Shown here: positions 10,113 through 32,515 of the stretch, in pieces
How positions within the stretch are numbered: the stretch's first letter is position 1
Layout: each line of letters begins with the position of its first letter
NCBI GenBank assembly: GCA_965262725.1
Contig: OZ253555.1
Span: 2,624,001 to 2,688,000 of the forward strand
Source of the DNA: Dehalococcoidia bacterium
GTDB taxonomy: Bacteria; Chloroflexota; Dehalococcoidia; UBA2979
Length of the DNA stretch: 64,000 bases
Direction: 5' to 3'
Translations under genes and position numbers: made by a program
Notes under the pieces: model-generated
Databases searched by the model: none
Told to the model about the DNA's origin: nothing
The model's input: the letters and a program-made list of their open reading frames with translations, nothing else

Positions 10113-10186
10113 GATCCGACGGCCCCGGCCGTGATCTGGCCGGCCCGCGATGCCGCCCCGCACGTCACAGTTGGTGCCAACGAGCC

Positions 10187-12010: not shown

Positions 12011-12148
12011 ATCCGGCGCCCGCTCGCGCCGCGCGATCGGCACGCCCCTCCGCGTTCCTCGCGCGGAGAGCCGGCGTGCGTGGTGCTCACCGGCTGGCGG
12101 GTCCGGTGCCAGTATCCAGGACGACTCCAGGACGCTGGTCCTAACCCC

Positions 12149-12703: not shown

Positions 12704-12855
12704 TCCGGACGCGCTCTCTCCAACCACGGCTAACCCCCTCGCACGCGACCAGGCGATCGTAGGGCCGGAGTCACGCTCCCTCAACCGCGCCCCGCGCCCC
12801 CGCCGTCGTCGTCTCTCGCGCTGTCCACTCAGGCGAAGTCCCGTACGATGGGGGT

Positions 12856-13407: not shown

Positions 13408-14396
13408 GCGAGACCGCAGGATCCGAATGCCGCAGCGCGGCGCCCTCGGGAGGTGTGCGCCGTTTCCAGGCGCCACGCGCGGGGCGACTGGATCGCCTCG
13501 TCGCGACGGAGGTGCCGGAGCTCGCGCGGGCCCAGGCGAGGCATCTCGTTGAGGAGGGCGCAGTGTCGGTCTCCGGCGTCGTCCAGCGCCTCCCCTCGCA
13601 CCGCGTGCGGGAGGGCGACCTCGTCGAGGTCGAGCTTCCCGTGCGGCGTGATCCGCTCGAGCGCGATGTCGATCGCCTCGCGGAAGACGTGCCCCTGGCC
13701 GTCCTGTACGAGGACGAGGAGACGCTCGTCATCGACAAGCCAGCGGGCCTCGTCGTCCACCCCCGTGACGGCGTCATGGGCGTGACGCTCGTCAACGTCG
13801 TGCGCGCGCGCTACCCGGAGGTGCGCCGGATCGGCGACGGCAACCGTCCCGGAGTCGTGCACCGGCTCGATCGCGACACGTCGGGGGTGATGGCGTACGC
13901 GAAGTCACTGGCGGCGCAGGAGGCGCTGAAGGCGCAGTGGAAGGCGCGCGAGACCCTGAAGCTCTACGTGGCGGTCGTGGCGGGTGCGATCGACCCCCCG
14001 GCCGGCATCATCGACGCGCCGATCGGCCCCGACCCGGCGGACCCATCGCGGCGCGCCGTCGTCGAGGACGGATCCTCGGCCCTCTCCGAATACCACACAC
14101 GGGAGCGCTACGGGAGCGAGGCGACGCTGCTTTCGGTGCGCATCCAGACCGGGCGGACGCACCAGATCCGCGTGCATCTCTCCGCCGTCGGGCACCCGGT
14201 GTGGGGAGACGAGCTCTACGGATCCCCGTCGTCGCTTATCGGTCGGCAGGCCCTGCACGCATCGAGGCTGGGATTCGTCCTGCCGTCGACGGGCGAGTGG
14301 CGCGAGTTCGAGGCGCCTCTTCCGGAGGATATGCGGACGCTGGTCGACGGGATGAGGAGCCGCCACGGAGTGTCTGCCGAGGCGTCGACGCGATGA
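13404..14396 (+). CDS. rluD: RluA/RluD-family pseudouridine synthase with S4 domain
   Basis: RLDR S4 start, DKPAGLVVHP, HRLDRDTSG, TGRTHQIRVH, QALHA; follows lspA. Confidence 0.9.
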   Translation: MSETAGSECRSAAPSGGVRRFQAPRAGRLDRLVATEVPELARAQARHLVEEGAVSVSGVVQRLPSHRVREGDLVEVELPVRRDPLERDVDRLAEDVPLAVLYEDEETLVIDKPAGLVVHPRDGVMGVTLVNVVRARYPEVRRIGDGNRPGVVHRLDRDTSGVMAYAKSLAAQEALKAQWKARETLKLYVAVVAGAIDPPAGIIDAPIGPDPADPSRRAVVEDGSSALSEYHTRERYGSEATLLSVRIQTGRTHQIRVHLSAVGHPVWGDELYGSPSSLIGRQALHASRLGFVLPSTGEWREFEAPLPEDMRTLVDGMRSRHGVSAEASTR

Positions 14397-15901
14397 GCGG
14401 TCTCCCGCAGTCCGAGCAGGCGCGAGACGGCAGCCCCCCGAGGCTGCGCTACGCGCCGAGCCCGACCGGCGACCCGCACGTCGGGAACATCCGGACCGCG
14501 CTCTGGAGCTGGCTCCACGCGCGGCGATACGGCGGCTCCTTCATCGTGCGCATCGAGGACACCGATCAGGCGCGCGCCATCGCCGGCGCCGACGAGCGCA
14601 TCATGGACTCGCTCCGCTGGCTCGGGATCGACTGGGATGAGGGGCCGGGCGCTGGCGGGCCGCACGCTCCCTACGTGCAGTCGCAACGACTTCCCCTCTA
14701 CCGAGACGCGGCGGCGCGGCTGATGGCGGCCGGGCTGGCCTACCGTTGCTTCGACACGCCCGAGGAGCTGGCCGCGATGCGCGCGGAGCAGCGGGCGGAG
14801 AGCCGCCCCATCGGCTACGACGGCCGCTGCCGCTCCATTCCCCGCGCCACCTCCGACGCGCGTGCCTCGGCAGGGGAGGGCTTCGTGGTGCGCTTCCGCA
14901 TGCCCGACGACGGCGTGACGGTCTTTCGCGACGCGATCCGCGGCGACATCCAGGTGGAGAACGCCACGCTCGACGACTTCGTGATCCTGAAGTCGGACGG
15001 CTTCCCCACCTACCACCTTGCGCACGTGGTCGACGACCACGAGATGGAGATCACGCACGTCACGCGCGGCGACGAGTGGATCCCCTCCACGCCACGTCAC
15101 GTGCGGCTGATCGAGGCCCTGGGCTGGGAACCACCCGCCTACGTCCACACGCCCGTGATCCTCGGCCCCGACGGCGGCAAGCTGTCCAAGCGCCACGGCG
15201 CGCGCTCCGTCCTGGAGTACGCCGAGGAGGGGTTCCTCCCGGAGGCTCTCGTGAACTTCCTCGCGATTACCGGCTGGGCCCTCGACGACCACACCGAGAT
15301 ACTCTCGCGGGAGGAGCTCACCCGGAGCTTCGACATCGGCGACCTCGTGCCGAACCCGGCGGTCTTCGACACGCAGAAGCTCGAGTGGATGAACGGCGCC
15401 TACCTGCGTCGTCTCGACGCGAGCCGGCTCGCCGATCTGTTCGAGGAGCGGCTGACGCGCGATCTCGCGGGCAGGGCCGGACTGCCTCTCGATCGCTCGC
15501 TGGTCGAAGCCACCGTGCCGCTCGTCCGGGAGCGCATCAAGCGGCTCTCCGAGCTGGCCCCGATGGTCGATTTCCTCTTCACCGGTGAGATCGCGGCCCC
15601 GGACGCGGGGACGCTGCTCGCGAAGGCATATCGCGGCCGACGGTCGGACGCCGAGGATGCGCTCGGCGTCTGCCACGAGGCGCTCGACGCGCTCGAGGGC
15701 TGGGCGCACGAGGCCATCGAAGCGGCTCTGCGCGCAACCGCCGCGGAGATCGGGGAGCGCGCCGGGTCGCTGTTCATGCTCTGCCGCGTCGCACTCACCG
15801 GCCGCGCCGTGACGCCGCCGCTCTTCGAGACCATGGAACTGGTCGGCCGTGACCCCACGCTGGCACGGCTTCGCTCGGCACAGGAGATGCTCCGCCCGTA
15901 G
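14393..15901 (+). CDS. gltX: Glutamate--tRNA ligase
   Basis: RYAPSPTG, HVGN, RIEDTD, KLSKR. Confidence 0.97.
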   Translation: MSGLPQSEQARDGSPPRLRYAPSPTGDPHVGNIRTALWSWLHARRYGGSFIVRIEDTDQARAIAGADERIMDSLRWLGIDWDEGPGAGGPHAPYVQSQRLPLYRDAAARLMAAGLAYRCFDTPEELAAMRAEQRAESRPIGYDGRCRSIPRATSDARASAGEGFVVRFRMPDDGVTVFRDAIRGDIQVENATLDDFVILKSDGFPTYHLAHVVDDHEMEITHVTRGDEWIPSTPRHVRLIEALGWEPPAYVHTPVILGPDGGKLSKRHGARSVLEYAEEGFLPEALVNFLAITGWALDDHTEILSREELTRSFDIGDLVPNPAVFDTQKLEWMNGAYLRRLDASRLADLFEERLTRDLAGRAGLPLDRSLVEATVPLVRERIKRLSELAPMVDFLFTGEIAAPDAGTLLAKAYRGRRSDAEDALGVCHEALDALEGWAHEAIEAALRATAAEIGERAGSLFMLCRVALTGRAVTPPLFETMELVGRDPTLARLRSAQEMLRP

Positions 15902-15966
15902 ATGTGGCTTCCGGGTCGGTGCCGGTGACGTCCCGCGCGCATGGCCTGACCCTGAGCACGGACAGG

Positions 15967-17442
15967 CTATACGAGTCTCGGGCGAAGGGCCTCGGCTTCT
16001 TCGACCTCTTCCACTTCCATGAGCAGGGCCGGGAGAATCGCAACGAGGGCGAGGACACCTGCGATCGCAAAGAGGTTCTGGAAGACCGTTACCCCTGCTT
16101 CGATCAGGGGGGCCTGCGTCTCTTCGAACGTCTCTCCAATCGTCGCGTGCGCGGTCAGGCTGTAGAAGCGCTCTATCCCCCAGGCGGACAGCGCCGCGAG
16201 CCCGAGCGCCATCCCCACCATTCGCGACGCGGTGACCAACGAGGCCGCAGCGCCCCAGTAGTGACTCGGTGCTGCGCTCAAGGCGCTCACGGCAATGGGC
16301 GGGATGACCAGTCCAAACCCCAGGCCCGCAGTGACCAACGGGACCGTGAGCCTCAGCTGGTCCACCTCCGTCTCCCAGCCACTCATGAACAGGAGGCCGA
16401 CGCCAATAAACGCCAGGCCGGTTGCGCACACGGTCCTCACGCCTGTCCAGCGCAGGATGTAGCCTCCGACCACCGCCCCCACCGGAATGACGGCTGTCAG
16501 GCGGACGAGGTGGAGGGCGCTCTCCCACGCTGGCTTCTCCATGACGGTGGCGGCCATCAGGGGAACGGCGACGAGAGAGATGATCAGGGCGATTCCCACC
16601 AGGAACTGGGTCACGTTGGACGATAAGAACGCCTTCGACCTGTACAGGAAGGACGCCAGCAATGGCTGGACCGCCCGTCTCTCGATCGCGATCAGGACGA
16701 GGACCAGGACGACTGCCACGCTGAGCAAGAGATAGGGGACCACGGAATCCCCCGAGAAGATGCTCCTTTGGGACAGAGCCACGGTGAGAACGGTGAGTGC
16801 CCCGCCCAGCGTGAGCGCCCCGACGTAGTCCATCTTGGCCTGAGGATGGGCACGATTCGACAGGATGGCAAGAAGCGCTATCAGGACGAGGCTCTGGGGT
16901 ACGTCCAGCCAGAATATCCACCGCCAGCCGATCAATTCGATGATCGCCCCTCCATAGATGGGACCCAGGACGGACCCGGCTTCAGCCGCGGCCGCCACGA
17001 GTCCCAGTGCGACCCCCCTCTTCTCCGGCGCTACCGCTCCCACCGCCATGGCCAGACCGATGGGGACCGTGGCGCCGCCTCCGAAGGCCTGGATCACCCT
17101 GGCGAACACGATCCAGTGGAAGTTCGGCGCGACCGCCACCAACGCCGAACCGATGGCGAACAAGAGGAGCGCCGCCTGGAACACCCTGACGCGGCCGTAG
17201 ACGTCGGACAGGCGCCCTGCCAGTGGCATCGCCACGGTGTAGCTGACCAGATACGCGGTCACGATCCATGACGCCCTGTCGAGGTCCGTCAGGGGGATTT
17301 CCAGGTCCACCATCACGCTGGGCAGCGCGGCAACCACCACCGTCTGGTCCAGGGCGGTCGAGAATACGCCCAGGCAGAGAATCCCCAGGACCACCGGCGG
17401 GGAAGAACCGAGTGCCGAGAGGCCAGACCGAGCGGAGTTCAC
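15967..17442 (-). CDS. MFS transporter (DHA2-like, resembles P55/Rv1410c)
   Basis: LDQTVVVAALP, GRLSDVYGR, WRWIFW, RMVGMALGLAALSAWG; many TM segments. Confidence 0.9.
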   Translation of the reverse strand: MNSARSGLSALGSSPPVVLGILCLGVFSTALDQTVVVAALPSVMVDLEIPLTDLDRASWIVTAYLVSYTVAMPLAGRLSDVYGRVRVFQAALLLFAIGSALVAVAPNFHWIVFARVIQAFGGGATVPIGLAMAVGAVAPEKRGVALGLVAAAAEAGSVLGPIYGGAIIELIGWRWIFWLDVPQSLVLIALLAILSNRAHPQAKMDYVGALTLGGALTVLTVALSQRSIFSGDSVVPYLLLSVAVVLVLVLIAIERRAVQPLLASFLYRSKAFLSSNVTQFLVGIALIISLVAVPLMAATVMEKPAWESALHLVRLTAVIPVGAVVGGYILRWTGVRTVCATGLAFIGVGLLFMSGWETEVDQLRLTVPLVTAGLGFGLVIPPIAVSALSAAPSHYWGAAASLVTASRMVGMALGLAALSAWGIERFYSLTAHATIGETFEETQAPLIEAGVTVFQNLFAIAGVLALVAILPALLMEVEEVEEAEALRPRLV

Positions 17443-18194
17443 GGTCCGGAGGCTACGTCGGGAAGTTGGATGTCAACGGGGCCGTTGATGCCCGAGATGA
17501 TCAGGAGGCGCGTCGTCTCCGCCGCGTCGTCATCGAAGACCCGGCCGGCGATTCTCATCTGTCGCAACGTGTGCTCGGCCTCATCAATCCACAGGGTCAA
17601 TGCGATGGCGTGACCCGAGCCCACCCCCGTGATCAGGCTCGAGAGATCTTCGGACATGATGGTCCCATCCACGCGGATGGCCTGGGCACCCTGTACCGCC
17701 TCTCGACCGGTGATCGCCGCGTCCGTGATGACCGGCAGCAGGTCGCGCAAGATTTCGCCGACGCCCCCGAAATTGAAGGGCACCTGCTCCAGGGGCAGGG
17801 GGAGCCACGGCGCGTCCGCGGCGAACTTCATGTACGCCTGTTCGCCGACGGCCAGCATTTCGACTTCCGCGAATCCCAGACCCGGGGCCACAACATCCAC
17901 CAGCATTCTGAAGCTATCGGGGGATCTGATTTCCCCCTCCATGCTCTTGAAAGTCGTCCCGAAGAACTTTGCTCCCGTTTCCAATTCGTCGACCATCTGG
18001 AACTGTGCCGTCGACATCGTGGCGAGCTTCTGCCCGGCACTCGCAAGCAAGTCATCCACCGAGACAGCACCCGGCGTGGGACTCGGCTCAGCGGTGGACG
18101 TTGAGTCCGATCCACACGCGGCTCCTACGAACAGGACGCCGAAGGCCAACACGGTGAGGGCGAGACTGCGGAGTGATGTCGCGGACCGGTTCAT
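17439..18194 (-). CDS. LppX/LprAFG-family lipoprotein
   Basis: Lipobox GAAC; beta-rich LolA-like pattern; C-terminal INGPVDIQLP; overlaps the MFS start. Confidence 0.75.
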   Translation of the reverse strand: MNRSATSLRSLALTVLAFGVLFVGAACGSDSTSTAEPSPTPGAVSVDDLLASAGQKLATMSTAQFQMVDELETGAKFFGTTFKSMEGEIRSPDSFRMLVDVVAPGLGFAEVEMLAVGEQAYMKFAADAPWLPLPLEQVPFNFGGVGEILRDLLPVITDAAITGREAVQGAQAIRVDGTIMSEDLSSLITGVGSGHAIALTLWIDEAEHTLRQMRIAGRVFDDDAAETTRLLIISGINGPVDIQLPDVASGP

Positions 18195-18582
18195 CCACTA
18201 GCTCCACGACCCCGTGGCTGGCGGAGTGACAGTCGTCTCACCACGAGAGGCGCTCTCCTCCACGTGAATCACCTGCACATGGTCTCCGCGCGGGCGGCGA
18301 TCCGATCCCATGCCCCCTGCTGCGGCCGAAAGGGCGGCCGCGAGCGACGCGGCAGTGGACGGTGCGCGTCATCGCTGCACGATAGTACCGGATTGCCGGC
18401 CCACGGAGCGGGATGCGGGAAGCTACCGGCCAACGGTCGGTCATCCGTTCCCAGCGGCTGCGAAGCAACGGCACCTTCGAGGCCGAGCGAGCACCGGAAC
18501 CGCGGCGGCTGGCCACCCCCCGGATTCTGAACTATAGAATGGCCTGCCATGAACCACGTGCTTCCCAGGCTGAGCTGGCTGA

Positions 18583-19054
18583 TCACCACTCCGACTCCTC
18601 AGTCCTTCCCGACAACGAGGTGAAGCCTTTGACGACGCGAAGCAATCATATCGAGCAGTACGGCGCGAGTCCGGACTACTATGAGATCACGTACATCATG
18701 CACAACCAGCAACCGTGGGCCAAGCAGTCTGACAAGCCTTGTCTCGTGACCTATAACCCCATTAGTCCCATCGATGAACGCTCGATCATCAAGAGATCGT
18801 GGTTCCAGCACATCGTCCATGACGTGCGGCACGTCGTAGTGTTTGTCAACCTATTCCGCTTCATTCAGGGTAAGAGGCGGACATGGCACTGCGGTGCACA
18901 TACCCTCATTAACAGTCAGGAGACCTGTCTCGTCACCGGGCTTGTCGCCGCGAGACAGATGGGTGCCGCCTACCCCTTCCAGGATCCCGCCGCGAAGCGG
19001 TCATTCAGCCACTACGGAAGCATCATGTACGGCTCGAGGTTCAGGAAGGCGTAG
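18583..19054 (+). pseudogene. C-terminal fragment of an FAD/NAD-binding oxidoreductase (COG2907/amine oxidase-like)
   Basis: HSDSSVLP...VTYNP...IQGKRRTWHCGA...QETCLVTGL..A...GAAYPF; no N-terminal GxGxxG domain upstream. Confidence 0.55.
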
Positions 19055-19386
19055 GCCGAACGACGGGCTCTTGCGCTGCGGTGCGCCAGGCAGCAGATCT
19101 GACGAGAGCCGGGCCCCTTCCAGCAAAACGTCGGTCGACGCGGCGCGGCTTGCACGGGCCGAGACGGCATCCTCGGTGAGCCGACAGGATTGGGCGTCGC
19201 AGCGACAGTGCAGCGCGGCAGGAACCTCTGGCGCCGGCGTCGGCGTCGGCGACCCGGACGGAATGTGGAGTGCGGCGAGAGCACACCCCCTGAGTGCGAT
19301 TGGCAAGGGGTTCCCGTATCCTAGGTGTGCACTTTGGCCGGGAAGGAAGCCGCCTGCACCAGGTTCCGGGTCAGGAGTATCGACTG

Positions 19387-20433
19387 ATGCCAACCCGACA
19401 TGGGGAGCCCGCGATTGCCCCGTTGCCCCCGTTTCCGGAGGGCTGGTACTTCATCGCAAGCCGTCAGGCAATGCAGCAGGCCAAGCTCATCCAGAAGACA
19501 TGGATGGGCGTGAACATCGTCGCCTGGTGTGACGAGGACGGGCAGGTCTGTGTCGCCGAAGCTGTGTGCCCGCACCTGGGCTCCGCGCTCGGCCCGGACG
19601 CGGGCGGGCGCATCTGCGCCGGCCGGCTCGTCTGCCCGTTCCATGGCTTTGAGTTCGATACAACCGGACAGTGCGTCGCCACTCCCTATGCCGCACCAGC
19701 CCGGTCCGCGAGGTTGCGGACCTTCGTGACACGGGAGATTCTCGGTCTGGTCTTCGCCTGGTGGGGGATCGCCGGACGTGCGCCGCAGTGGAGCCTTCCC
19801 GAGGATCAGTCGGAGCAGGACCGCTGGAGCAATCACAATATCTCGACGATCCGCTTTCCCGGTCATCCCCAGGAGACGACCGAGAACGTCGTGGACCTGG
19901 CCCACCTGCGCTACGTCCACGGCTACGACAGCGTGGATCGCACCGAGCCGGTGACGGTGGACGGCGCCTGTCTCGAGAGCCGCTGGGACTTCAGGAGCGT
20001 CCGGAAGGTCGCGAAGATCGCGACCCTCACCCTTGAGCTCTCCGCCTGCACTCGTGCCTTTGGGCTGGGCTACTCGTTTGTGGAGGTCCACGAGCGCTCG
20101 ATCGGCATGGATCTGCGTCTGTGGGTGCTGGCGACGCCTGTCGACGGCACGCTCATCGACCTGTCGCTGGTCTCGCAGGTCCGGGAGATACGGAAGCCGA
20201 AGCGGCGGATCATAGGGCTGGGGTTTCTCCCGCTGAGGCTGCGCGCGCCTGTGATGAACAGGTTCATCGCGTCTCAGCAGCAGAGCGACGTTCAGCAGGA
20301 CGTGGTGGTCTGGAGCCGCAAGCAGTACGTGTCCCCACCCCGCCTCACCCGCTCGGACGGTGAGATCACGGCCTTCCGAGAGTACTGCGCGCAGTTTTAT
20401 CCCGATCCGAGCGATGACGGCTTACCTGCCTGA
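19387..20433 (+). CDS. Rieske non-heme iron oxygenase (KshA/Neverland-like)
   Basis: CPHLG...CPFHG Rieske ligands; ENVVDLAHLRYVH iron motif; FPEGWY; QDVVVW; AGGAG RBS. Confidence 0.9.
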   Translation: MPTRHGEPAIAPLPPFPEGWYFIASRQAMQQAKLIQKTWMGVNIVAWCDEDGQVCVAEAVCPHLGSALGPDAGGRICAGRLVCPFHGFEFDTTGQCVATPYAAPARSARLRTFVTREILGLVFAWWGIAGRAPQWSLPEDQSEQDRWSNHNISTIRFPGHPQETTENVVDLAHLRYVHGYDSVDRTEPVTVDGACLESRWDFRSVRKVAKIATLTLELSACTRAFGLGYSFVEVHERSIGMDLRLWVLATPVDGTLIDLSLVSQVREIRKPKRRIIGLGFLPLRLRAPVMNRFIASQQQSDVQQDVVVWSRKQYVSPPRLTRSDGEITAFREYCAQFYPDPSDDGLPA

Positions 20434-20965: not shown

Positions 20966-22382
20966 GGTCATGTCCCCGCAAGTGGTGTCGCTGCGCACCA
21001 TCCTTATCAATTGTTAGCCGGCAGCCTGCAGCAGCACCTCCTCGCCTGAGTTAAGTTCACTCCCCGGCGGGGAGAGCAGCGTCATCATCGTCATGTAGCG
21101 TCTCCCCACGGCCCACTCGTCGTGCTGCTCAGCGAGCACCGCACCGATGAGCCGGATGACCGCTGAGCGGTTGGGGAAGATGCCGACCACGTTGGTGCGC
21201 CGGCGGATCTCCTTGTTGAGCCGCTCGAGGGGGTTGTTCGACCAGACCTGACGCCAGTGCGCCACCGGGAAGGCCGTGAACGCCAGGATCTCCTCCGCGG
21301 CGTCGGCGAGCATCGCCGCGGCCTCCGGGAAGCGCGCTCCGAGCTGCTCCACGACCCGCGCGTGCTGGGCGTGCACCTCGGAGGCCGAGGGCTGCTGGTA
21401 GATCGTGCGCACGGTCGTCGCCACCAGCGCCTCCGCGCTCTTCGGCACGCGCGTGAGCAGGTTCCGCATGAAGTGGGTACGACAGCGCTGCCAGGAGGCG
21501 CCGCCGAAGACGGTGGCGATCGCTTCCCTCAGGCCCTGGTGTGCGTCGGAGGTCACCAGCTCCACGCCGGAGAGCCCTCGTGCTACGAGGCCGCGCAGAA
21601 ATGCCAGCCAGAAGGCCCCGTCCTCGCTGGTACCAACGTCGATGCCCAGCACCTCGCGCTTCCCCTCGGCGTTCACCGCGGTGGCGACGACGACGCTCAC
21701 CTGAGCGATGCGGCCCTCCTTGCGTACGCGCTGGGTAAGCGCGTCGAGCCAGAGGTAGCGATAGGGGCCGGAGTCGAGGGGCCGGCCCAGGAAACTCGTG
21801 ACGACCGTGTCGAGCTCCGAGCAGATACGCGAGACCTGGCTCTTCGAGATGCCCTCGCAGCCGAGCGAGCGCACGAGGTCGTCGACGCGGCGAGTGGAGA
21901 CGCCCTCCACGTACGCCTGCTGGACGACGGCCAGCAGGGCGCGCTCTGAGCGGCGCCTGGGCTCGAGCAGCGCCGGGAAGTAGGACCCCTGGCGGAGCTT
22001 CGGGATCTGCAGGTCGATGCTGCCCACCCGCGTGTCCCAGCGTCTCGGCCTGTAGCCGTTGCGCCGGGTGGTGCGCATCTCGCTGCGCTCGCCGTAGCCG
22101 GCGCCGACCTGCGCCGAGACCTCCTGGTCCATCACCGCCTCGGCGAGCACGGCCACCGCTTCGCGCAGGAAATCGAGGTCAGCTCCCGATGCCTGCTTGC
22201 GGAGCAGCTCCAACACGTCCACGCTCTCTCTGACCACCGTTGTCCTCCTCCACGTTCGTCAGACCTTCGTGAAGGATGATGCGGTGGTCTCTTACGTCCA
22301 CCTGCATGGGGACCGTGTCGGTAGTAGGTCCCCCTGTGGAGACCGTCTCCCCGCCTGTGACACCACTTCCTGGGACGCTACT
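20966..22382 (-). mobile_element. IS256-family insertion sequence (~1.42 kb)
   Basis: 24-bp imperfect terminal inverted repeats (GGTCATGTCCCCGCAAGTGGTGTC vs AGTAGCGTCCCAGGAAGTGGTGTC, 18/24); no target duplication seen. Confidence 0.85.
21014..22237 (-). CDS. IS256-family (mutator) transposase
   Basis: RNGYR, IPKLR, GVSTR, WLDA, SDAHQGL, WQRCRTHF, NPLERLNKEIRRR. Confidence 0.97.
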   Translation of the reverse strand: MVRESVDVLELLRKQASGADLDFLREAVAVLAEAVMDQEVSAQVGAGYGERSEMRTTRRNGYRPRRWDTRVGSIDLQIPKLRQGSYFPALLEPRRRSERALLAVVQQAYVEGVSTRRVDDLVRSLGCEGISKSQVSRICSELDTVVTSFLGRPLDSGPYRYLWLDALTQRVRKEGRIAQVSVVVATAVNAEGKREVLGIDVGTSEDGAFWLAFLRGLVARGLSGVELVTSDAHQGLREAIATVFGGASWQRCRTHFMRNLLTRVPKSAEALVATTVRTIYQQPSASEVHAQHARVVEQLGARFPEAAAMLADAAEEILAFTAFPVAHWRQVWSNNPLERLNKEIRRRTNVVGIFPNRSAVIRLIGAVLAEQHDEWAVGRRYMTMMTLLSPPGSELNSGEEVLLQAAG

Positions 22383-22721
22383 GCGTAGCACAGGCAACTA
22401 CGCCATAGCTCCCGTACCTGAGACGCTCCCCAACGATGCCTTGCATGAGGGTGGCGGTGGAACACAGGCCATGTGTTCCATGGAGGTGCTCACTGACCAA
22501 CCTAAGGCGCCTCTGGCAACACTTGGACGTTTCGCGTCTTGGCTGTATCCGCGCGCGGGGTGAGAGCCCTTGCACCGTCCCGGCTGCATCCTGGCTAGCC
22601 ATGGTTGCGAAGGAGTCAGGCACTGATCGCCGCTACGTAACTGGACTTTACGGCGAACGTTACAACTGGCCGTGGGGGCGACCGGCGCCACTTCCACCGC
22701 TTGCTCGGTAGAATGCAAGCC

Positions 22722-25199
22722 ATGGACCGCATCCTACGTGGACTGAGTTGGCTGGTTACGGCCCGCCCGTACGTCACTATCGCGGTCCTCCTCCTCGTTA
22801 CCTTCGGGCTTGCCGCGGGGACGACCCTCCGCGCGCCGATAGACGAGACTGATGGGTTCCTTCCCCCCGGAAGCGCCATCGTGGAGGCGTTGGACGACAT
22901 CGACACGCTCTTCGGGGAGTCGGGCGCGGTCAGTCTCGTCACGTTGATATTCCGCGGGGAGGCGATCACGCCCGACGGGCTCTCCCAGATGGACGGCTTG
23001 GTCGAAGCGATCGGCAGCGATCGGGGAGTGGTGGAGCTGCTGGCGCATGACGATCCGGTCATCGCTCCCTCGGCGCTGGTCAAGACCGTACTCCGACTGG
23101 ATGGGTTCGAGTCGGTCACGCAAGCGGAGATCGATTCCGCCCGCAGTATCCCCGAGGTCGGGGGGGCGCTTGCCGCGATGACCGGGACCGACACCGACGG
23201 CACGCCGGTCGCCATCGCCACGATCCGTCTGCTCGACACAGGCGACGACCGGATTCGAGATGCCGAACGCCGGATTCAGGAACTGACTCGTGCGAACGTC
23301 GGCTCGCTGCGGGTGACCAGCGTGTCGCCCGTGGTGATCGAGGACGAGTACCAAGAGGCGTCGCGGACGGGGATGCTGCCGTTCTACGCGACGGCGCTGG
23401 TGTTGATCGCGGGTCTGATACTGCTCTTCCTGCGCTCGCTTTCGGATCTGCTGCTGACGTTGGCGGGCCTCCTGATGTCGCTCATCTGGGTCGTCGGCGC
23501 GGAGGGCTGGCTGGGGCCAAATGGCGTGGGACTCCTGGGCCGTCCGAGCGGGATCTCGGCCATGATCCCGATCATCATCATCAGCCTCACGGTGGACTAT
23601 GCGATCCAGAGCACCTCGCACTACCGGGAGCAGCGAACGGCCGGCACGCCGGTGCTGACCGCCGTGCGGTCGGGATTGCACGCCGTGGTCGTCCCTCTGG
23701 CGCTTGCGGCCGCTACGACGATCGTGAGCTTCCTCGTGGGACTTCTCTCTCCTATCCCCGCGATCGGTGACTTCGGCATCGTAGCCGGGTTGGGCGTGGG
23801 GATGAGCTTGATCGTGATGCTGACGCTGATTCCCGCCACACGCGTCATTCTCGATCAGAGGAGCGAGAGACGCGGCACGCTGACGGCGCCGCGAGCGGTC
23901 TCGGAGGCGCTGCCCGGCATCGAGCGGCTGGCAGAGGTACTAGGGAGGTCGGTCACACGCAGGCCCGCCCCCTACATCATTGCCGTGTTGGCGGTAACGG
24001 TCGGGCTGGGGTTCGCAGCCACGGGGCTGGAGTCGAGGTTCAGTATTCGCGACGTCTTGCCAAAGGGCGGGGGCGTGCTGGAGGACATGAACACGCTCGA
24101 CGCGGCGGTCGGCGGCTCGACGGAGATCGTCAGCGTGCTGGTGGAGGCCGAGGCCACTGAGACCCGCACGCTCCTGAACCTGTACGACCTCACGGACTCC
24201 TTTGAGGACAATCAGCGACGCCCGAGCGCGGCAGCGGCCCCGATCCAGGCGTCGTACGATCTGCTCGTCGACGACTGGATCGACGACAGCGGCGAGCCCG
24301 GTGACAAGTTCGACCCGGAGCTCGCGGCGCTTTTCCGGGAATCCTCCATGGGACTGGAACTCGATGCAGGGCTGATGCAGGAGTTTCTCAACAAGCTCGA
24401 GGCGAAGGATCGCGCCATTCCGCGCCTTCTGGTCAACAACCCGGATGGCATCGACTTCATGCTGCTCCAGTTTCCGGCCTTCACGGATGATCCCGACGCC
24501 ACGAAGCGGATCCAAGAGGACCTCGAGGCGCTCTGGCTCGGCGACGACCGTGCCATCACGGCGACCTCCGGGGGTATCATGTCGGTGACCGTCACGGAAG
24601 AGATCACGAGCCGCCAGACAGAAGCGATCACGACGACGATCGCGGTGGCGCTCGGCATCCTGATGCTGTTCTTCTGGGCGACGCTCCGCCAGCCGGTACT
24701 GGCCTTCGCCGCCGTGATGCCAATCGTACTCGCCTTGATCTGGGTGCTGGGTACGATGGCGCTGCTGGGGATTCCCTACACGCTGGTCACGTCAATCATC
24801 ACGGCGCTCTCGATCGGGATCGGCGTGGACTACACGATCCACGTCATCCACCGCTACCGGGAAGAGTACTACCGCCGGCGCGAGCCCGAGGCGGCCGCGA
24901 TTCGCACACTCGCGACCACCGGCTCCGCGCTGCTCGGTTCCGCGCTGACCACGGCGCTCGGACTCGGCGTCTTGATCTTCTCGCCCGTGCTCGCGTTGCA
25001 GCAATTCGGGATCACGGTGGTGATCACGATCGTGTATGCGTTGATCGTCTCCATCCTACTGGTGCCACCGGCGATGACCATCTGGGGCGCGTACCAGAAC
25101 ATGCGGCTGCGCTCGATGGTGAGTCGGATGGCAGACGAGCTCGACCTAGCGATCGAGCAGGTGCACCAGCGTTACGAGCAGGAGCAGCCGTCGCACTAG
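22722..25199 (+). CDS. MMPL/RND-family transporter
   Basis: Two repeats of TM1-extracellular domain-5TM; LTVDYAIQ and GIGVDYTIH motifs. Confidence 0.9.
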   Translation: MDRILRGLSWLVTARPYVTIAVLLLVTFGLAAGTTLRAPIDETDGFLPPGSAIVEALDDIDTLFGESGAVSLVTLIFRGEAITPDGLSQMDGLVEAIGSDRGVVELLAHDDPVIAPSALVKTVLRLDGFESVTQAEIDSARSIPEVGGALAAMTGTDTDGTPVAIATIRLLDTGDDRIRDAERRIQELTRANVGSLRVTSVSPVVIEDEYQEASRTGMLPFYATALVLIAGLILLFLRSLSDLLLTLAGLLMSLIWVVGAEGWLGPNGVGLLGRPSGISAMIPIIIISLTVDYAIQSTSHYREQRTAGTPVLTAVRSGLHAVVVPLALAAATTIVSFLVGLLSPIPAIGDFGIVAGLGVGMSLIVMLTLIPATRVILDQRSERRGTLTAPRAVSEALPGIERLAEVLGRSVTRRPAPYIIAVLAVTVGLGFAATGLESRFSIRDVLPKGGGVLEDMNTLDAAVGGSTEIVSVLVEAEATETRTLLNLYDLTDSFEDNQRRPSAAAAPIQASYDLLVDDWIDDSGEPGDKFDPELAALFRESSMGLELDAGLMQEFLNKLEAKDRAIPRLLVNNPDGIDFMLLQFPAFTDDPDATKRIQEDLEALWLGDDRAITATSGGIMSVTVTEEITSRQTEAITTTIAVALGILMLFFWATLRQPVLAFAAVMPIVLALIWVLGTMALLGIPYTLVTSIITALSIGIGVDYTIHVIHRYREEYYRRREPEAAAIRTLATTGSALLGSALTTALGLGVLIFSPVLALQQFGITVVITIVYALIVSILLVPPAMTIWGAYQNMRLRSMVSRMADELDLAIEQVHQRYEQEQPSH

Positions 25200-25248
25200 A
25201 GGTGAGGTGGGGAAGGATGCGGCCGCCCTCGTCGATGCTAGTCAGGCG

Positions 25249-27273
25249 TCAGAGGGGGAGTTCGTGCCTCTGCTCTGCGACCAGAAATCGAAGCTTCTTG
25301 GTTGGCGACATCGACGGGAAGCTGCTGATCGGCAGCTTCTGATCCCGGGGCAACTCCAGCCTGAAGTAGTGGGCGAGCATCAGCAGGTTGAGCGCCAGGT
25401 GCAATTCGGCCCAGCGACGGCCGAGGCATGTGTGCGTACCCAGCCCGAATGGAGCGTAGCCAGGGCCGACATGCTCGCCACGCGGGGACAGGTAGCGGTC
25501 GATGTCGAACTTGAAGGGCTCAGGGAACACGTCCTCCATGTAGTGCGAAGCCGCCTGGGCATAGTAGACGCGCGACCCCACGGGCAGCTCGTAGCCCTCG
25601 ACGACGCACGTGTTCATGACGTTGCGCATCGACATCGCCGCGATCGGTGTCATGCGCAAGGTCTCCATAACCAGGCGCCGGGTGACGTCGAAGCTATCCG
25701 GGGCGAGGTCCGCTGCACTCGGATCCCCGTTGGCAAACAGTGCGTCGGCTTCTGCCCTGACCCTCTCGTGGACTTCAGGGTGGGACACCATGGCGTACAT
25801 GGCGAAGCCGAGCTGATCGCCAAGGTACATGCTCGCGAGCAGCATCGTCGCGAGCGGGAAGTTCAGGTCCGACTCCGGCAGAAATTGAGGGTCGCTCGCG
25901 TGCAGGCTAAGGAAGTCATCCGCCAGATCCCGGGGGCAGCCGGCCCTCTGGCCAGGCGTATGAGAGTTCTGAATGCTTGACGCCAGCTCTTCGATCATCT
26001 TCGCCCGGCGTCGCATCGCTGGCGTGTGCAGCAGGAACCTGGGCAAGGTGCCCGCAACGTGGATATTCAGCGCTCGCTCCTTGTACTTGATGATGTCCTC
26101 GATCAGGGCCTGCGTTTCCGCACTAATCATGAGCGGTGATAGCTGCGCGTTCATGTACAGTCGGAGCATCGTTCCTGCGGAGATATTGTCTCCGACTGCC
26201 CACGTCGCCATGTGCGTCCGCGCATTCCCCAAGACCTCATCGAGGCGCCTCAGCACACTCGCCCGCGAGTAGGACGACTGCATGGCTTTGCGAAAGCGAA
26301 AGTGGTCGGCACCGTCGAGAGAGTGGATGGTTCGGGAGGCGCCGTACACTTTCTCCATGCCCTCAAAGTAGTCCTTGGACCGCAGGTACATCCGTCCGTG
26401 GCGGTGCACCCACTGGTTCGTCCGCGGGCCGGCGAGGACGATCATGCGCTCCCGAAATGGGAACTTGATGTCGAATATGGGACCGTACTCCTTCGCGAGG
26501 TCTGCGAAGAGCGCCGGCAGGTTGCCTCCGCGGGCATGCGGGTTGAGCACGAGCCGGAGCAAGGACACCCGCGGGATCGGCTTGGTCAGAGCGGCGTGCC
26601 GGAGTGCCGGGCCGGCAAGGTTGTGGGCGACCGCATCAACGATGGAACGGCCGATCAGATCCAACCTGCAGATGAGCTCAATGCGTTCCTCTGATTCCTC
26701 ATCAAGCGGGAATATGAAGCGCAAGACGTCGCAGGTATTGATGAGGGCGATGATGATGACATCTCGCGGTTCAGGAATCTCATTGTCGAAGATGACATGC
26801 CTGATCCGTGTCTTGACGAACTCAGCCGCGGTCCCATCCTGGGAACCGCTGAACATGTCCGACTTCCAGCCGGAGCGAGCGAGCGTCCAGAATTCGCCCT
26901 CATGGTGCTCCAGGAGCTTCAGTTCAACCAGGCGATCCAGGGTCAAATCAATGATCGACTCCGCATGAGGAGCGAGTCGTTCGATCCAGTACTGAGTGTT
27001 GCGCTGTACTGGCTCGTTTGCAATCTCCTTCAGGATGGGGTCGAGAATGGGGTCGCCCGTTGCGGTCTGATCTAGCAGAATCAGGGATTCCACGTCCGTA
27101 TCGATGCGGGACATCGAAGATAGTTCTGCGAGTGCGGCGCCGACAACGGCACAGTTGAGGTCCCAGCCGGGTACTTGGTGAAAGTAACCAGTCTCCTCGT
27201 TGAGGAGCATCAAGATGAGTTCTTCGGGCAAACTCAGCCGCTGAACCACCACTTCTTCCGTAGAGAGCGTCAT
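25249..27273 (-). CDS. GPP34 (GOLPH3/Vps74-like) domain - cytochrome P450 fusion protein
   Basis: N-terminal LSLPEELILMLL...GAALAEL...TGDPILD...LDRLVE...PEPRD (GPP34-like); C-terminal ETLR, FDIDRY, PFGLGTHTCLG; one continuous 674-aa frame. Confidence 0.85.
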   Translation of the reverse strand: MTLSTEEVVVQRLSLPEELILMLLNEETGYFHQVPGWDLNCAVVGAALAELSSMSRIDTDVESLILLDQTATGDPILDPILKEIANEPVQRNTQYWIERLAPHAESIIDLTLDRLVELKLLEHHEGEFWTLARSGWKSDMFSGSQDGTAAEFVKTRIRHVIFDNEIPEPRDVIIIALINTCDVLRFIFPLDEESEERIELICRLDLIGRSIVDAVAHNLAGPALRHAALTKPIPRVSLLRLVLNPHARGGNLPALFADLAKEYGPIFDIKFPFRERMIVLAGPRTNQWVHRHGRMYLRSKDYFEGMEKVYGASRTIHSLDGADHFRFRKAMQSSYSRASVLRRLDEVLGNARTHMATWAVGDNISAGTMLRLYMNAQLSPLMISAETQALIEDIIKYKERALNIHVAGTLPRFLLHTPAMRRRAKMIEELASSIQNSHTPGQRAGCPRDLADDFLSLHASDPQFLPESDLNFPLATMLLASMYLGDQLGFAMYAMVSHPEVHERVRAEADALFANGDPSAADLAPDSFDVTRRLVMETLRMTPIAAMSMRNVMNTCVVEGYELPVGSRVYYAQAASHYMEDVFPEPFKFDIDRYLSPRGEHVGPGYAPFGLGTHTCLGRRWAELHLALNLLMLAHYFRLELPRDQKLPISSFPSMSPTKKLRFLVAEQRHELPL

Positions 27274-27304
27274 GCGTCCTGCTCCGTGTGCATCGTCCCG
27301 AAAG

Positions 27305-27325
27305 TGCAAGCCACGGTGACTTGCA
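27305..27325. promoter_or_regulatory. Operator-like inverted repeat TGCAAGCCAC-G-GTGACTTGCA upstream of the P450 fusion
   Basis: 9/10 matching arms; lies between a minus-strand TACACT (27335-27340) and the RBS. Confidence 0.4.
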
Positions 27326-27622
27326 ACCAACGACAGTGTAGCCCCCCGGGCGGAGGACCGGGCAAACGAGGCGACCTGAGCGGGCATAGCAGCGTGCGTG
27401 TGTCCGGGTGGTACAGACAGGCGCTTCTCGTATGTTGGCTGGGAGTAGTGACCGGGTTAGCCACCCCATGGTCGTAACGGGTCAAGAGGGGAGCCACTCG
27501 TCTCGTCACGGGCCCCGTCAGGCGGCGAGTTCGGTGTCTCCGTCGCTTCGACTTCCCCACGCGGTCGCCTCGTCGCAGAGCCAGCGTGAGCGCAGGCAGT
27601 CGTGCTGGTAGGCGACCAGAGG

Positions 27623-27639
27623 CTTCCTGGGACGCTACT
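27623..27639 (-). mobile_element. Solo IS256 terminal repeat
   Basis: CTTCCTGGGACGCTACT identical to 22366-22382, the outer 17 bp of the IS end. Confidence 0.7.
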
Positions 27640-27640
27640 T

Positions 27641-27739
27641 ATCCGTCTGGCAAATCTACTGCTGGCAGCGGGAGTCGTGGCGCTCGCTGCGGCGGGAATC
27701 GTGACCGTCCGCCGGCGCTCGGAGAACCCGCGGCCTTGA
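27641..27739 (+). pseudogene. C-terminal membrane-anchor remnant of a disrupted surface protein gene
   Basis: IRLANLLLAAGVVALAAAGIVTVRRRSENPRP* begins right after the solo IS end; no start codon. Confidence 0.45.
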
Positions 27740-29849: not shown

Positions 29850-31049
29850 CTATGCGGCGGTGAGCGGCAGCGTCGTGAGACCGCGCAGCAGAAGAGTCCC
29901 GCCACGTTCCGCGGCTCCCGCTCCGGCACCGATCGATGCATAGCGGTCGAGCAGCGCCGTGAACGCGATCTCCGCCTCGAGCCGGGCGAGCGGCGCCCCG
30001 AGGCAGAAATGCGGGCCCAGTCCGAAGGAGAGATGCCGGTTCGGCTGCCGCGCGGCCACGAACTCGGCCGGCCTGTCGAACTGCTCCGGGTCATGGTTGG
30101 CAGCGCCGAGCATGACGAGGAGCAGTTCGCCCCGCTCTACCGGCCGTTCCCCGACGCGCGTCCCCGCGGTCGCGACCCGCACCACCGCCTGCACGGGGGA
30201 GTCGAAGCGCAGCATCTCCTCCACGACGAGCGACGTGATCGACGGATCGACACGCATGCGGTTCGCTACCTCCGGACGATCCACCAGCGCGAGCATCCCG
30301 TTGCCAATCCAGTTCGTTGTCGTCTCCTGCCCCGCCACGAGCAGCAGGATGGCGAACGCGAGGATCTCATCGGTGGTGAGCTCCTCGGCCTCCCGCGCCG
30401 CGACCAGGGCGGAGATCAGATCGGCGCGTGGCGCGGTCCGGCGCTCCTCGACGAATCCCCGGAAGTAGTCCACCAGCTCGAGCGTCGTCGCACGCGCCGC
30501 TGCAATGGCCGCCTCGGAGTTCACGAGCTCGGTGGTCGCTGCGATGGCGCTCGACCAGTGCGCGAAGCGGTCGCGATCGTCGGGCGGCACACCCAGCAGC
30601 TCGGCGATGACGATCACCGGCAGCGGGCGCGCGAAGGCGGCCATCAGGTCGAACTCACCGCGCTCCGGAGCGGAGGCGAGCAGCTCGCACGCGACCTCCT
30701 CGATCCGCGGCCGCAACGCCGCGACACGGCGGGGCGTGAACGCGCGACTGAGGATTCCGCGCATCCGCGTGTGTGCCGGCGGATCGACGGTGAGCAGCGT
30801 GCGCACGTCGCCGAGAGGCGACGCGGCTCTCTGCTCGCGAACCAGCGCGCCGACCCGCCCGCCGGCCTGCTGCGTGTCCGACGAGAAGGTCGCCGGATCG
30901 CGCAGAACCGCCAGGCAGTCCTCGTAGCGAGTCAGGATCCAGGCCTGCAGGGCGCCGCTGCGATGGACGGGCTCCTCGCCGCGCAGCCTGCCGTACTGGA
31001 TATAGGGATTCCTCTTGAAGGACTCTACGAACGGGTTGAAGACGACCAT
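29850..31049 (-). CDS. Cytochrome P450
   Basis: DPPAHTR, AGQETT, EMLR, HLSFGLGPHFCLG. Confidence 0.96.
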   Translation of the reverse strand: MVVFNPFVESFKRNPYIQYGRLRGEEPVHRSGALQAWILTRYEDCLAVLRDPATFSSDTQQAGGRVGALVREQRAASPLGDVRTLLTVDPPAHTRMRGILSRAFTPRRVAALRPRIEEVACELLASAPERGEFDLMAAFARPLPVIVIAELLGVPPDDRDRFAHWSSAIAATTELVNSEAAIAAARATTLELVDYFRGFVEERRTAPRADLISALVAAREAEELTTDEILAFAILLLVAGQETTTNWIGNGMLALVDRPEVANRMRVDPSITSLVVEEMLRFDSPVQAVVRVATAGTRVGERPVERGELLLVMLGAANHDPEQFDRPAEFVAARQPNRHLSFGLGPHFCLGAPLARLEAEIAFTALLDRYASIGAGAGAAERGGTLLLRGLTTLPLTAA

Positions 31050-31159
31050 CAGCACGATCGTACCGTGACGCCGAGGCGGAGCGCAGGCCCACAACGGAGA
31101 TCCGCCCCCCTGATATCGTTCGAAGGACAGCAGCGAGAGCTCCACGATCGGCTGGTGCA

Positions 31160-32515
31160 GTGGCTACCGCCTACGACCTCGAACGGGCGCCACGGCCGCC
31201 TGCGGGGCAGTGGCAACGCACGCTACCGCTCGCCGGAACCATGGCCGGCCTCTGGCTGCGCTGGCGCTGGCTGCGCATTCAGCGTCGCCTCCTCGGGCAC
31301 GAGCGGATGGACGGAGCAACGCGCCGCTTCCACCAGGCAGCGGCACTGGCCGTGGTGCGGCGGGCCCTCAAGCAGCAGGGGCTCGTCGTCAAGATTTGCC
31401 AGTTCCTGGGGAGTCGCGCGGACATCCTGATGGACGAGTACGTGCGCACGCTCTCGCTCGTCCATGACCAGGTTCCGCCGCGGCCGTGGCCCGAGATGCG
31501 GCCGCTGATCGAGCGTGAGCTGGGGGGCTCGATCGCGGAGCTCTACGGGGAATTCGACCCCCGGCCGGTCGCCGCGGCCTCGCTCGCGCAGGTCTACCGC
31601 GCCAGGCTCCACGACGGAACCGCGGTTGCCGTCAAGGTCCAGTACCCGGGAATCGACCAGATCGTGCAGGACGACCTCAGGGCGCTGCGCATGCTGGTCG
31701 ACCTCTGGGCACGCATCGAGAAGATCATCGACTTCCGCCCCGTCGTGGACGAGATGGAGCGAACCGCGCCCGAGGAGGTCGACTTCATCCACGAGGGACG
31801 GTCGGCAGAGCGGATTGGTGCGCTGCTAGCGGACCGCGACGACGTGATAGTGCCGGGCATCTACTGGGAGCGCACGTCGCGCCGGGTGCTGACGATGGAC
31901 TACATCGACGGCATCCGGATCGCTGACGTCGAGGCGCAGCGGGCGGCCAGCGTCCACACTCCACAGGTCGCCGCGTCGCTGATCGATCTCTACAACACCA
32001 TGATCCTGAAGCACGGGGTCTTCCATGCTGACCCGCATCCGGGCAACCTCTTCGTCGTGCCGGGCGAGGAGCGGGGCGAAAAGGCGAAGATCGGGATCGT
32101 CGACTTCGGCCTCACCAAGTTCCTCCCCGAGGAGTTCCGCGAACAGCTGATCGTGCTCACCAGCGCGATCGTGAGTGAGCAGCCCGAGGCGATCACGGGA
32201 ACGATGGAGGGGATGGGCTTCCGCACGAGGGAGCGCGACCAGCAGACGTACGCCGCTCTCGGCGAGGCCTTCCTCGGCGACGTCCTCCGCTCGGGGAAGG
32301 CGTACGCCGATCAGGAGATGGTCGCCGACATCAATGCTCGGCTCGGGAGGGTGCTGCGCGCGAACCCGCTGGTCGAAGTTCCCGGCGACGTGATCCTGAT
32401 CGCGCGAGTGATGGGTTTGCTCTCCGGTCTCGGCAAGATGCTCGACTCCGCAACCGACCTGCTCGAGGCGCTGATGCCCTACCTCGACCCCGACATCGAG
32501 CCCGCCGCGGGGTAG
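31160..32515 (+). CDS. AarF/UbiB/ABC1 atypical kinase
   Basis: KICQ, AAASLAQVY, AVKVQYP, HADPHPGN, DFG. Confidence 0.93.
   Translation: MATAYDLERAPRPPAGQWQRTLPLAGTMAGLWLRWRWLRIQRRLLGHERMDGATRRFHQAAALAVVRRALKQQGLVVKICQFLGSRADILMDEYVRTLSLVHDQVPPRPWPEMRPLIERELGGSIAELYGEFDPRPVAAASLAQVYRARLHDGTAVAVKVQYPGIDQIVQDDLRALRMLVDLWARIEKIIDFRPVVDEMERTAPEEVDFIHEGRSAERIGALLADRDDVIVPGIYWERTSRRVLTMDYIDGIRIADVEAQRAASVHTPQVAASLIDLYNTMILKHGVFHADPHPGNLFVVPGEERGEKAKIGIVDFGLTKFLPEEFREQLIVLTSAIVSEQPEAITGTMEGMGFRTRERDQQTYAALGEAFLGDVLRSGKAYADQEMVADINARLGRVLRANPLVEVPGDVILIARVMGLLSGLGKMLDSATDLLEALMPYLDPDIEPAAG

Follow-up and report, generated by a model that had tools for sequence, protein, structure and literature searches.

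The gene considered here encodes a GPP34 domain, homologous to GOLPH3/Vps74, followed on the same chain by a cytochrome P450. It lies in a 64,000-nucleotide stretch of the genome of a Dehalococcoidia bacterium (contig OZ253555.1, positions 2,624,001 to 2,688,000; hereafter the window), convergent with a gene for an MMPL transporter. The fusion is a real two-domain enzyme and a member of GPP34_L, the long GPP34 proteins published from sponge symbionts by Ferreira et al. (2025, Microbiome 13:4, PMC11706023). Its gene neighbours suggest, as far as sequence can tell, that its substrates are sterol-like lipids, modified next to a membrane pump. The explanation that I favour, as on the whole probable though far from secure, is that the fusion is a cytoplasmic P450 for the tailoring of lipids, probably sterols, docked on the membrane or on the pump and belonging to a mobile module of symbionts. 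A preliminary description of the window had seen in it an undescribed, membrane-targeted, lipid-oxidising system. The claim of novelty falls, the architecture being in print as GPP34_L in the main text of Ferreira et al. The single chain and the conserved pairing with an MMPL or other resistance-nodulation-division (RND) transporter stand, and because this pairing is conserved, a membrane lipid-oxidising system remains the best reading.

One gene for two domains

The 674-aa frame of the fusion opens with an ATG at 27273, preceded at 8 nt by GGAG, which resembles a ribosome-binding site, and has no internal stop; the longest minus-strand open reading frame (ORF) over it, 25249..27387, has 712 aa. 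As the preliminary description had it, this uninterrupted frame runs from GPP34 into a full P450: Pfam places PF05719 (103.8 bits for a cut-off of 29.1, profile positions 1-196 of 201) and PF00067 (130.6 bits for a cut-off of 22.8, profile positions 19-458 of 462) on one chain, and the two P450 signatures named there, ExxR (E537, R540) and FGxGxHxCxG (FGLGTHTCLG), are present and conserved. Third-position G+C bias is continuous across the entire frame, the value being 0.69 over GPP34 and 0.82 over the P450. Read-through or misassembly was ruled out by full-length two-domain homologues and by difference-free contigs from the runs of two studies, one of which is possibly the source of the window itself: a 2438-nt contig of run X2 matches 25093-27530 without a single difference, and in run X1 two contigs do so over that interval, domain junction included. 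Nor is the fusion a one-off, as 261 stretches of species-representative contigs (one genome per species) encode a relative.

AlphaFold2 modelled the whole chain with confidence from 86 sequences (mean predicted local distance difference test score, pLDDT, 87.8; predicted template modelling score, pTM, 0.86), low-confidence residues being just 1-10, 135-151 and 222-227. This model suggests that the two domains hold a fixed mutual orientation. It supersedes an earlier one from 45 close sequences (pLDDT 69), together with the Foldseek result obtained from the latter.

A word-indexed protein search returned 2344 homologues at E <= 0.001 among 7999 scored; the best 120 of these are 654-687 aa long, 63-100% identical to the window protein, and all carry both Pfam domains. 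The window protein is 63-88% identical to more than 100 GPP34_L-type proteins and nests within their tree. According to the main text of Ferreira et al., the GPP34-P450 architecture accounts for 656 of 663 long GPP34 proteins, and is found in sponge symbionts of many phyla only, free-living sister lineages being devoid of it. The window protein is a member by its order (N-terminal GPP34, C-terminal P450), its length class and its multi-phylum spread in uncultured bacteria.

Nine phyla are labelled, and intermixed, on the fusion tree, which was built from 77 of 81 cluster members after rows shorter than 600 aa had been dropped: Chloroflexota (35 rows), Gemmatimonadota (9), Pseudomonadota (8), Actinomycetota (6), Latescibacterota (4), Binatota (4), Nitrospirota (3), Rhodothermota (1) and Thermodesulfobacteriota (1), with 6 rows unlabelled. 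In that tree six Dehalococcoidia copies form the sister group of the window fusion (SH-like support 95), and relatives of the GltX protein of the genome are Dehalococcoidia too, at 49-54% identity; an actinobacterial origin, which the LprG, PAC2 and MMPL genes had seemed to suggest, was rejected on these grounds. Among 40 related genomes, a full-length fusion is present in three of the four of the same genus, at just 63-65% identity; five of 24 same-family genomes give a match at E <= 1e-20, a full-length fusion in four cases. The G+C content of the gene is 0.604, that of the window 0.697 and that of the genome 0.706. Across loci of at least 15 kb, the fusion has a lower G+C than the rest of the locus in 68 of 71 (median difference 0.036), and stays near 0.59 though host flanks range from 0.56 to 0.70. 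The module would thus be one that moves horizontally among sponge-associated bacteria. Two relatives (L050:10001-10690 and a second copy, G003:C1:1282355-1284331) have an in-frame stop, TGA in one of them; they are possibly pseudogenes or sequencing errors.

Conserved gene neighbourhood

For neighbourhood work, 78 of the 261 loci were kept, which makes 79 with the window; all 78 are metagenome-assembled genomes (MAGs), several with sponge-symbiont taxon names. ORFs of at least 90 aa in these loci and in the reoriented window were clustered by all-against-all BLASTP, and one representative of each recurrent cluster was scanned with Pfam (Table 1). At least one of five families, namely the Rieske oxygenase, the methyltransferase, the ERG4/24 reductase, MMPL and the flavin adenine dinucleotide (FAD) oxidase, occurs in 72 of the 79 loci and at least two in 61, AcrB being excluded from these counts; seven loci have none of the five, one of them just 2.9 kb long. 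The distance from the fusion to an RND-type gene is at most 10 kb in 66 loci, at most 1.5 kb in 57 and at most 300 bp in 39. The convergence with MMPL pointed out in the preliminary description, with 49 nt between the two stop codons, proves to be the commonest arrangement (39 loci). The structure of the 49-nt spacer is not unusual (z 0.71), and scanning 25100-27700 for promoters and terminators gave no hit. Gene order and orientation vary among the loci, and the proteins are only 57-66% identical, so the association of the fusion with its neighbours has been kept despite rearrangement. The fusion, MMPL and Rieske genes also occur together, with no other member, in further loci such as L033, L036, L042 and L058, and these three genes may be the minimal working set. 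No cyclase was found among the recurrent neighbour clusters; no direct cyclase search of the loci was made.

Table 1. Features of the fusion and its module in the window, and gene families recurring beside the fusion in 79 loci
Feature	Position in window	Strand	Basis and detail	Loci
GPP34-P450 fusion gene	25249..27273	-	674 aa, stop codon 25249-25251; ORF, translation, Pfam	
GPP34 domain	26635..27231	-	aa 15-213; PF05719 E 1.6e-29	
Cytochrome P450 domain	25291..26529	-	aa 249-661; PF00067 E 9.4e-38	
Atypical I-helix motif A480-S481-M-Y483-L-G485-D486	25816..25836	-	alignment to CYP51 AGHHTS	
Heme-ligand loop FGLGTHTCLG (Cys616)	25420..25449	-	translation; column counts	
MMPL/HAE3-type RND transporter	22701..25199	+	convergent on fusion; Pfam MMPL, Patched, Sterol-sensing	
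Rieske [2Fe-2S] oxygenase, KshA-type C-terminal domain	19294..20433	+	Pfam Rieske + KshA_C	
FAD amine-oxidase-like gene remnant	18566..19051	+	tblastn, 76% identity over 165 aa	
Insertion sequence, Mutator/IS256 transposase family	20972..22376	-	transposase 21014-22237; Pfam Transposase_mut 3.7e-132	
MFS (DHA2) transporter + LprG/LppX-like lipoprotein pair	15967..18194	-	Pfam; tblastn; NCBIfam EmrB-like	
Family: Rieske + KshA_C				57/79
Family: MMPL with sterol-sensing/Patched signatures				40/79
Family: second MMPL type				9/79
Family: AcrB				17/79
Family: Methyltransf_11 + Sterol_MT_C			Sterol_MT_C E 4.7e-16	33/79
Family: FAD amine-oxidase-like			full-length form with Amino_oxidase + NAD_binding_8	33/79
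Family: ERG4/ERG24 reductase			E 1.3e-39	9/79
Family: MpaB/Lcp				10/79

The nearest characterised relatives of the window neighbours handle steroids, sterols or hopanoids. The best PDB match of the Rieske protein is KshA, a steroid 9-alpha-hydroxylase (E 6.8e-24). The MMPL protein falls into the HAE3-type of NCBIfam, with 118 bits to the model of the hopanoid RND transporter HpnN and a weak 52 bits to that of the bacterial sterol transporter BstA. These likenesses hold at family level only, the scores being far under equivalog cut-offs (751 to 1400 bits). N-terminal alignment and hydropathy indicate Met8, at 22722, as the likely true start of MMPL. Its cytoplasmic C-terminal tail (aa 795-832, 25085-25199) is strongly conserved across 25 homologues, the conserved residues being W795, G796, Q799, N800, R802-S805, R809, L814 and D815; this tail is a candidate docking site.

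PI4P-pocket residues replaced in the GPP34 domain

A single-sequence PDB search with the N-terminal domain gave only E 0.023 to GOLPH3. A family profile made from 28 fusion N-domains (27 of the 78 loci were used, L050 being dropped for its in-frame stop) and from the short GPP34 of the same genome matched GOLPH3 (3kn1, E 6.1e-8 over aa 7-204; 9qpq; about 1e-7) and Vps74, which bears out the identification of the N-terminus as GPP34. All 30 atlas look-alikes of the domain belong to the GPP34 family, the three listed being stand-alone bacterial GPP34 clusters.

The pocket by which GOLPH3 binds phosphatidylinositol 4-phosphate (PI4P) consists of W81, R90, R171 and R174, as probed with the variants W81A/R90A and R171A/R174A in the text of Wood et al. 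(2009, PMC2806290). In the fusion these residues align to P35 (P35/W37), V44, E105 and I108, beside a 10-residue deletion. The replacements are shared by the 45 close sequences, where column 35 is P in 43, column 44 is V in 19, A in 14, I in 11 and M in 1, column 105 is E in 44 and column 108 is I in 43; position 37 is W in all 45. Conversely, 41 divergent fused proteins have Arg at position 108 in 20 cases and at position 37 in 15. Basic residues that are present in other bacterial GPP34 domains have thus been lost in the clade of the window, and nothing here indicates a lipid anchor of the PI4P type. An equivalent of R90 is kept in no bacterial GPP34 form examined. The projecting beta3/beta4 hairpin is retained (aa 121-131, strands 121-124 and 128-131 in both models), with L121, H124, G126 and F128 invariant. 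What the fusion has in common with GOLPH3/Vps74 (PDB 3kn1, 2zii) is thus the homologous domain, the beta-hairpin and the idea of an adaptor that holds an enzyme at a membrane. It differs in its pocket residues and in that its client enzyme is fused to it, whereas GOLPH3 binds the tails of its clients; moreover it is bacterial and, by its predicted features, cytoplasmic, outside any Golgi or COPI context.

An atypical I-helix in the P450 domain

In the heme-ligand loop, G610, G612, H614, C616 and G618 are invariant in 45 of 45 close relatives. The I-helix departs from the P450 norm: Tyr483 stands at the place of the acid-alcohol Thr, beside a one-residue deletion, and the canonical A/G-G-x-D/E-T is absent. 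S481, Y483, G485 and D486 are invariant in the same 45. Over 86 fused sequences, the Thr position is occupied by Tyr in 50, Thr in 31 and another residue in 5. Most aligned fused forms have the canonical AG(L/I)(D/E)T, whereas the group of the window has the deletion and Tyr (Asn in two). In a tree of the P450 domain the non-Thr rows form one split (SH-aLRT, the Shimodaira-Hasegawa-like approximate likelihood ratio test, 100; unrooted).

By sequence, PDB matches to the P450 include CYP184A1 (2.5e-19) and CYP51 (1.1e-17, at about 20% identity). Identity with CYP51 was rejected on that E value and on the alignment of Methylococcus AGHHTS to LASMYL. The nearest folds found by Foldseek are CYP184A1, the BM3 heme domain, CYP120, CYP3A4 and CYP51, with target-normalised TM-scores of 0.74-0.83 (about 0.8 to CYP184A1, BM3 and CYP120; 0.79 to a CYP51). 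BM3/CYP102 and the Methylococcus capsulatus CYP51-ferredoxin belong to the same broad fold class and likewise carry an extra domain on the heme domain. In the fusion, by contrast, the extra domain is N-terminal, non-redox and without known cofactor, and the chain has only GPP34 and p450. Compared with microsomal P450s, GPP34 would stand in for the N-terminal membrane anchor, not for an electron donor.

When 1.84 billion representatives were scanned in full with the P450 domain, 20184 matched at E <= 0.001 and 276 at <= 1e-30. Pfam assigned the 48 matches of at least 598 aa, among 150 listed, to GPP34+p450 (42), p450+cNMP_binding (4) and p450 only (2). One fusion with a canonical I-helix, hereafter called Thr-type (P0148, 35% identical to the window protein), occurs in Vicinamibacterales MAGs, where the fusion gene is followed after a 1-nt gap by AcrB and then by an outer-membrane factor (OEP), a second copy being followed by a TonB-dependent receptor. 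Since the Thr-type subfamily also has such partners, the link between the fusion and envelope transporters is older than the sterol-flavoured module. In one Vicinamibacterales MAG (L169), two Thr-type GPP34-P450 genes lie 7.6 kb apart, in the regions 400-5616 and 10001-16878, with an ecdysteroid-kinase-like APH gene and a major facilitator superfamily (MFS) gene nearby.

Comparison with known sterol gene clusters

Clusters for de novo sterol synthesis in sponge symbionts, as described in the texts of Kelly et al. (2022, PMC9531527) and Brown et al. (2023, PMC10070321), contain a cyclase, a true CYP51, ERG24, sdmA/sdmB and methyltransferases. The fusion module has in common with them the host phyla, horizontal transfer, and genes of the sterol methyltransferase and ERG24 types. 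It differs from the published description in having another P450, a Rieske protein that is KshA-like and not SdmA, and a transporter, where those clusters have the genes for synthesis itself (cyclase, CYP51, sdmA/sdmB). P450, Rieske, GPP34 and MMPL are mentioned neither in the text of Brown et al. nor in that of a 2025 preprint by Brown and Welander; P450, Rieske and GPP34 are likewise missing from the three supplement sheets of Brown et al. that were searched. For Ferreira et al., the words 'sterol', 'MMPL' and 'methyltransferase' have 0 occurrences in the main text, so the sterol and pump gene context was not weighed there. In the literature searched, PDF supplements aside, no paper linking GPP34-P450 to sterol genes or RND pumps was found.

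Proposed function and alternatives

I infer a substrate class, a docking role and a direction of transport. The fusion would be a cytoplasmic P450 with GPP34 as a built-in adaptor domain. With it, an RND/MMPL lipid transporter and a KshA-like Rieske oxygenase make up the core of the module, often joined by the genes for a sterol C-24 methyltransferase, for an FAD oxidase and for an ERG4/24-type sterol reductase. The task of the fusion would be to tailor a sterol or a similar membrane lipid by oxidation, on the inner face of the cytoplasmic membrane and coupled with transport by the pump encoded beside it. By analogy with the microsomal anchor and with GOLPH3, GPP34 would tether to the membrane or the transporter a P450 that is soluble by itself, as the preliminary description had proposed. 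An adaptor role of GPP34 for enzymes of the cytoplasmic face fits its fusions recorded in the main text of Ferreira et al., in 2 genomes with a Rieske domain and in 5 with an ABC ATPase. The genome that contains the window (one contig, 3,674,403 bp, 91.55% complete) has no squalene or oxidosqualene cyclase domain, the search control being positive in 2 genomes; the substrate would then be supplied from outside, by the host. Among the five other chromosome-level genomes with the fusion that were searched, three lack a cyclase and two have one far from the fusion.

Several points weigh against this explanation. The 79 loci are relatives of one mobile cassette and their counts are not independent; the methyltransferase is not within 10 kb in 46 of them and ERG4/24 not in 70, and no redox partner was found within the cluster. 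The P450 itself gives neither a family assignment nor a sterol signal, and an NCBIfam scan of the fusion protein returned no model at its cut-off. The pocket comparison is a remote profile alignment (E 6e-8) without superposition, and pTM is an indirect sign of domain packing. In the window the Rieske protein, at 38 bits for a cut-off of 600 in the SdmA model, is no SdmA equivalog; of the FAD oxidase, 462 aa long when complete, only the part corresponding to aa 296-460 is left; part of the module may have been silenced by the insertion sequence that separates the Rieske gene from MMPL; and tblastn found neither methyltransferase nor ERG4/24 genome-wide.

The alternative that survives best is a hydrophobic substrate other than a sterol, such as a fatty acid, a different terpenoid or a metabolite of the host or sponge, which the module would detoxify and export or take up, the sterol-type genes being passengers. 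The P450 lends itself to this, its best structural neighbours being fatty-acid binders (CYP184A1 was crystallised with oleic acid; BM3), and so do the 46 loci just mentioned, the AcrB-OEP and TonB-receptor partners of the divergent subfamily, which resemble general envelope transport, and the MFS-LprG lipid-transport pair that adjoins the module in the window. The families beside the fusion speak otherwise: the methyltransferase has a Sterol_MT_C domain and the reductase is of the ERG4/ERG24 family, the best solved relative of the Rieske protein is a steroid hydroxylase, MMPL matches sterol-sensing and Patched models, and these four sterol-flavoured families recur with the fusion across several phyla. 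Related symbiont methyltransferases, which may or may not be of the lineage found in the module, methylate sterols in vitro according to the text of Brown et al. (2023). I hold a non-sterol substrate to be unlikely, if not negligibly so.

A bolder version of the sterol-tailoring explanation starts from a possible joint change of both domains in the Tyr-type clade, where the basic GPP34 residues R37 and R108 have become W and I and the acid-alcohol pair of the P450 is gone. GPP34 might then hold a sterol or neutral lipid received from the RND pump, and the heme domain might have given up ordinary monooxygenase chemistry with activated O2, perhaps in favour of sterol peroxides as substrates or of substrate-assisted catalysis. 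In this way symbionts that have no cyclase would alter sterols of the host and hand them back, and so have a share in the unusual sterol content of sponges and in its fossil record. This is speculative and, in my estimate, improbable.

Ferreira et al. propose, in the main text, that GPP34_L is a secreted effector whose GPP34 domain binds host PI4P on the phagosomes of sponge cells and blocks their maturation, the P450 being accessory. The restriction of GPP34_L to sponge symbionts and its absence from free-living sister lineages suit this proposal, as do the sponge-symbiont names among the 78 MAGs and the true homology of the domain to GPP34. I nevertheless consider it very unlikely. All four pocket residues that GOLPH3/Vps74 was shown to require for binding PI4P are replaced beside the 10-residue deletion, and the clade lacks the Arg that many other bacterial GPP34 domains keep at 37 and 108. 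None of 86 fused sequences has a twin-arginine translocation (Tat) motif, no signal-like segment is seen at the acidic N-terminus, and the most hydrophobic 19-residue stretch (172-190) is a core helix of the GPP34 fold. VirB4, TssC and FHIPEP, the three markers of type III, IV and VI secretion that were searched for, are absent from the one-contig genome, with positive controls. The gene is set among cytoplasmic cofactor-dependent enzymes and inner-membrane pumps, a context left unweighed in the main text of Ferreira et al., and a P450 requires heme and a bacterial electron-transfer chain. Neighbourhood, pocket residues and missing secretion markers thus lead to a different reading from the published one, that of intracellular lipid tailoring.

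GPP34-P450 has been proposed as a hallmark 'symbiosis factor' of sponge bacteria, with a hypothesis of host manipulation. Should the sterol-tailoring explanation be true, the effector model would need revision, and two published signatures of sponge symbionts, GPP34_L and bacterial sterol genes, would merge into one system. Concrete, expressible genes would also be at hand for asking which organism makes or remodels the unusual sponge sterols that serve as biomarkers of early animals. For P450 enzymology, this would be the first fused non-redox membrane adaptor and the first clade without the acid-alcohol pair. The window itself contributes just a reduced copy of the module.

The module copy in the window

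In this reduced copy the fusion, MMPL and Rieske genes are intact, the methyltransferase and reductase are missing, the FAD oxidase is truncated and an insertion sequence is inserted. The latter has 18-nt terminal inverted repeats and sits between the Rieske and MMPL genes; with 9 near-full genome copies, that of the window included, at 96-100% identity, and many fragments, it looks recently active. The MFS-LprG pair adjoins the module here as well as in L006 and L075 (identity 78% for MFS, 55-59% for LprG). That the module is decaying in this genome and the fusion has no role is very doubtful: the FAD oxidase reduced to its last 165 aa, the insertion sequence with its 9 near-full copies, the absent methyltransferase and reductase and the in-frame stops of L050 and of the second G003 copy would fit decay, but none of the fusion, MMPL and Rieske frames is shortened, all columns invariant in 45 sequences are unchanged in the window fusion, and the three genes that remain are those found alone in other loci, L033, L036, L042 and L058 among them, and may be the minimal working set.

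Other observations

This genome has just two P450 genes. The second (29850-31145, minus strand) lies in the window 2.6 kb from the fusion, adjoined by an ABC1 atypical kinase gene (31160-32515, plus strand). It is outside the conserved module, relatives occurring near the fusion in 2 of 78 loci, at 33-34% identity.

A stand-alone GPP34 gene of 205 aa lies outside the window, at G000:C1:2211118-2211735 (L081:8118-8735), with the native codon usage of the genome (third-position G+C 0.94). Its neighbours are two oligopeptide-type ATP-binding cassette (ABC) ATPase genes and the genes for threonyl-tRNA synthetase (ThrRS) and LepA. The pattern 'P450 near GPP34_S' described in the main text of Ferreira et al. 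fails for this gene, which has housekeeping surroundings and no P450 in its vicinity. In loci of Acidimicrobiia, the fusion module is directly downstream of an ABC permease-ATPase-ATPase set resembling that beside the stand-alone GPP34.

The short ORF clusters u254, u287 and u345 were not counted as genes, having been shown to overlap module genes and having the look of antisense shadows; u211, u135 and u164 were rejected likewise, on an inferred antisense overlap with methyltransferase, MMPL, Rieske and AcrB genes. Among relatives of the P450 domain, four representatives (among P0255, P0257, P0263, P0271 and P0196) carry cyclic-nucleotide-binding domains C-terminal to the P450, and one fused representative, of 872 aa, has two GPP34 domains ahead of it.

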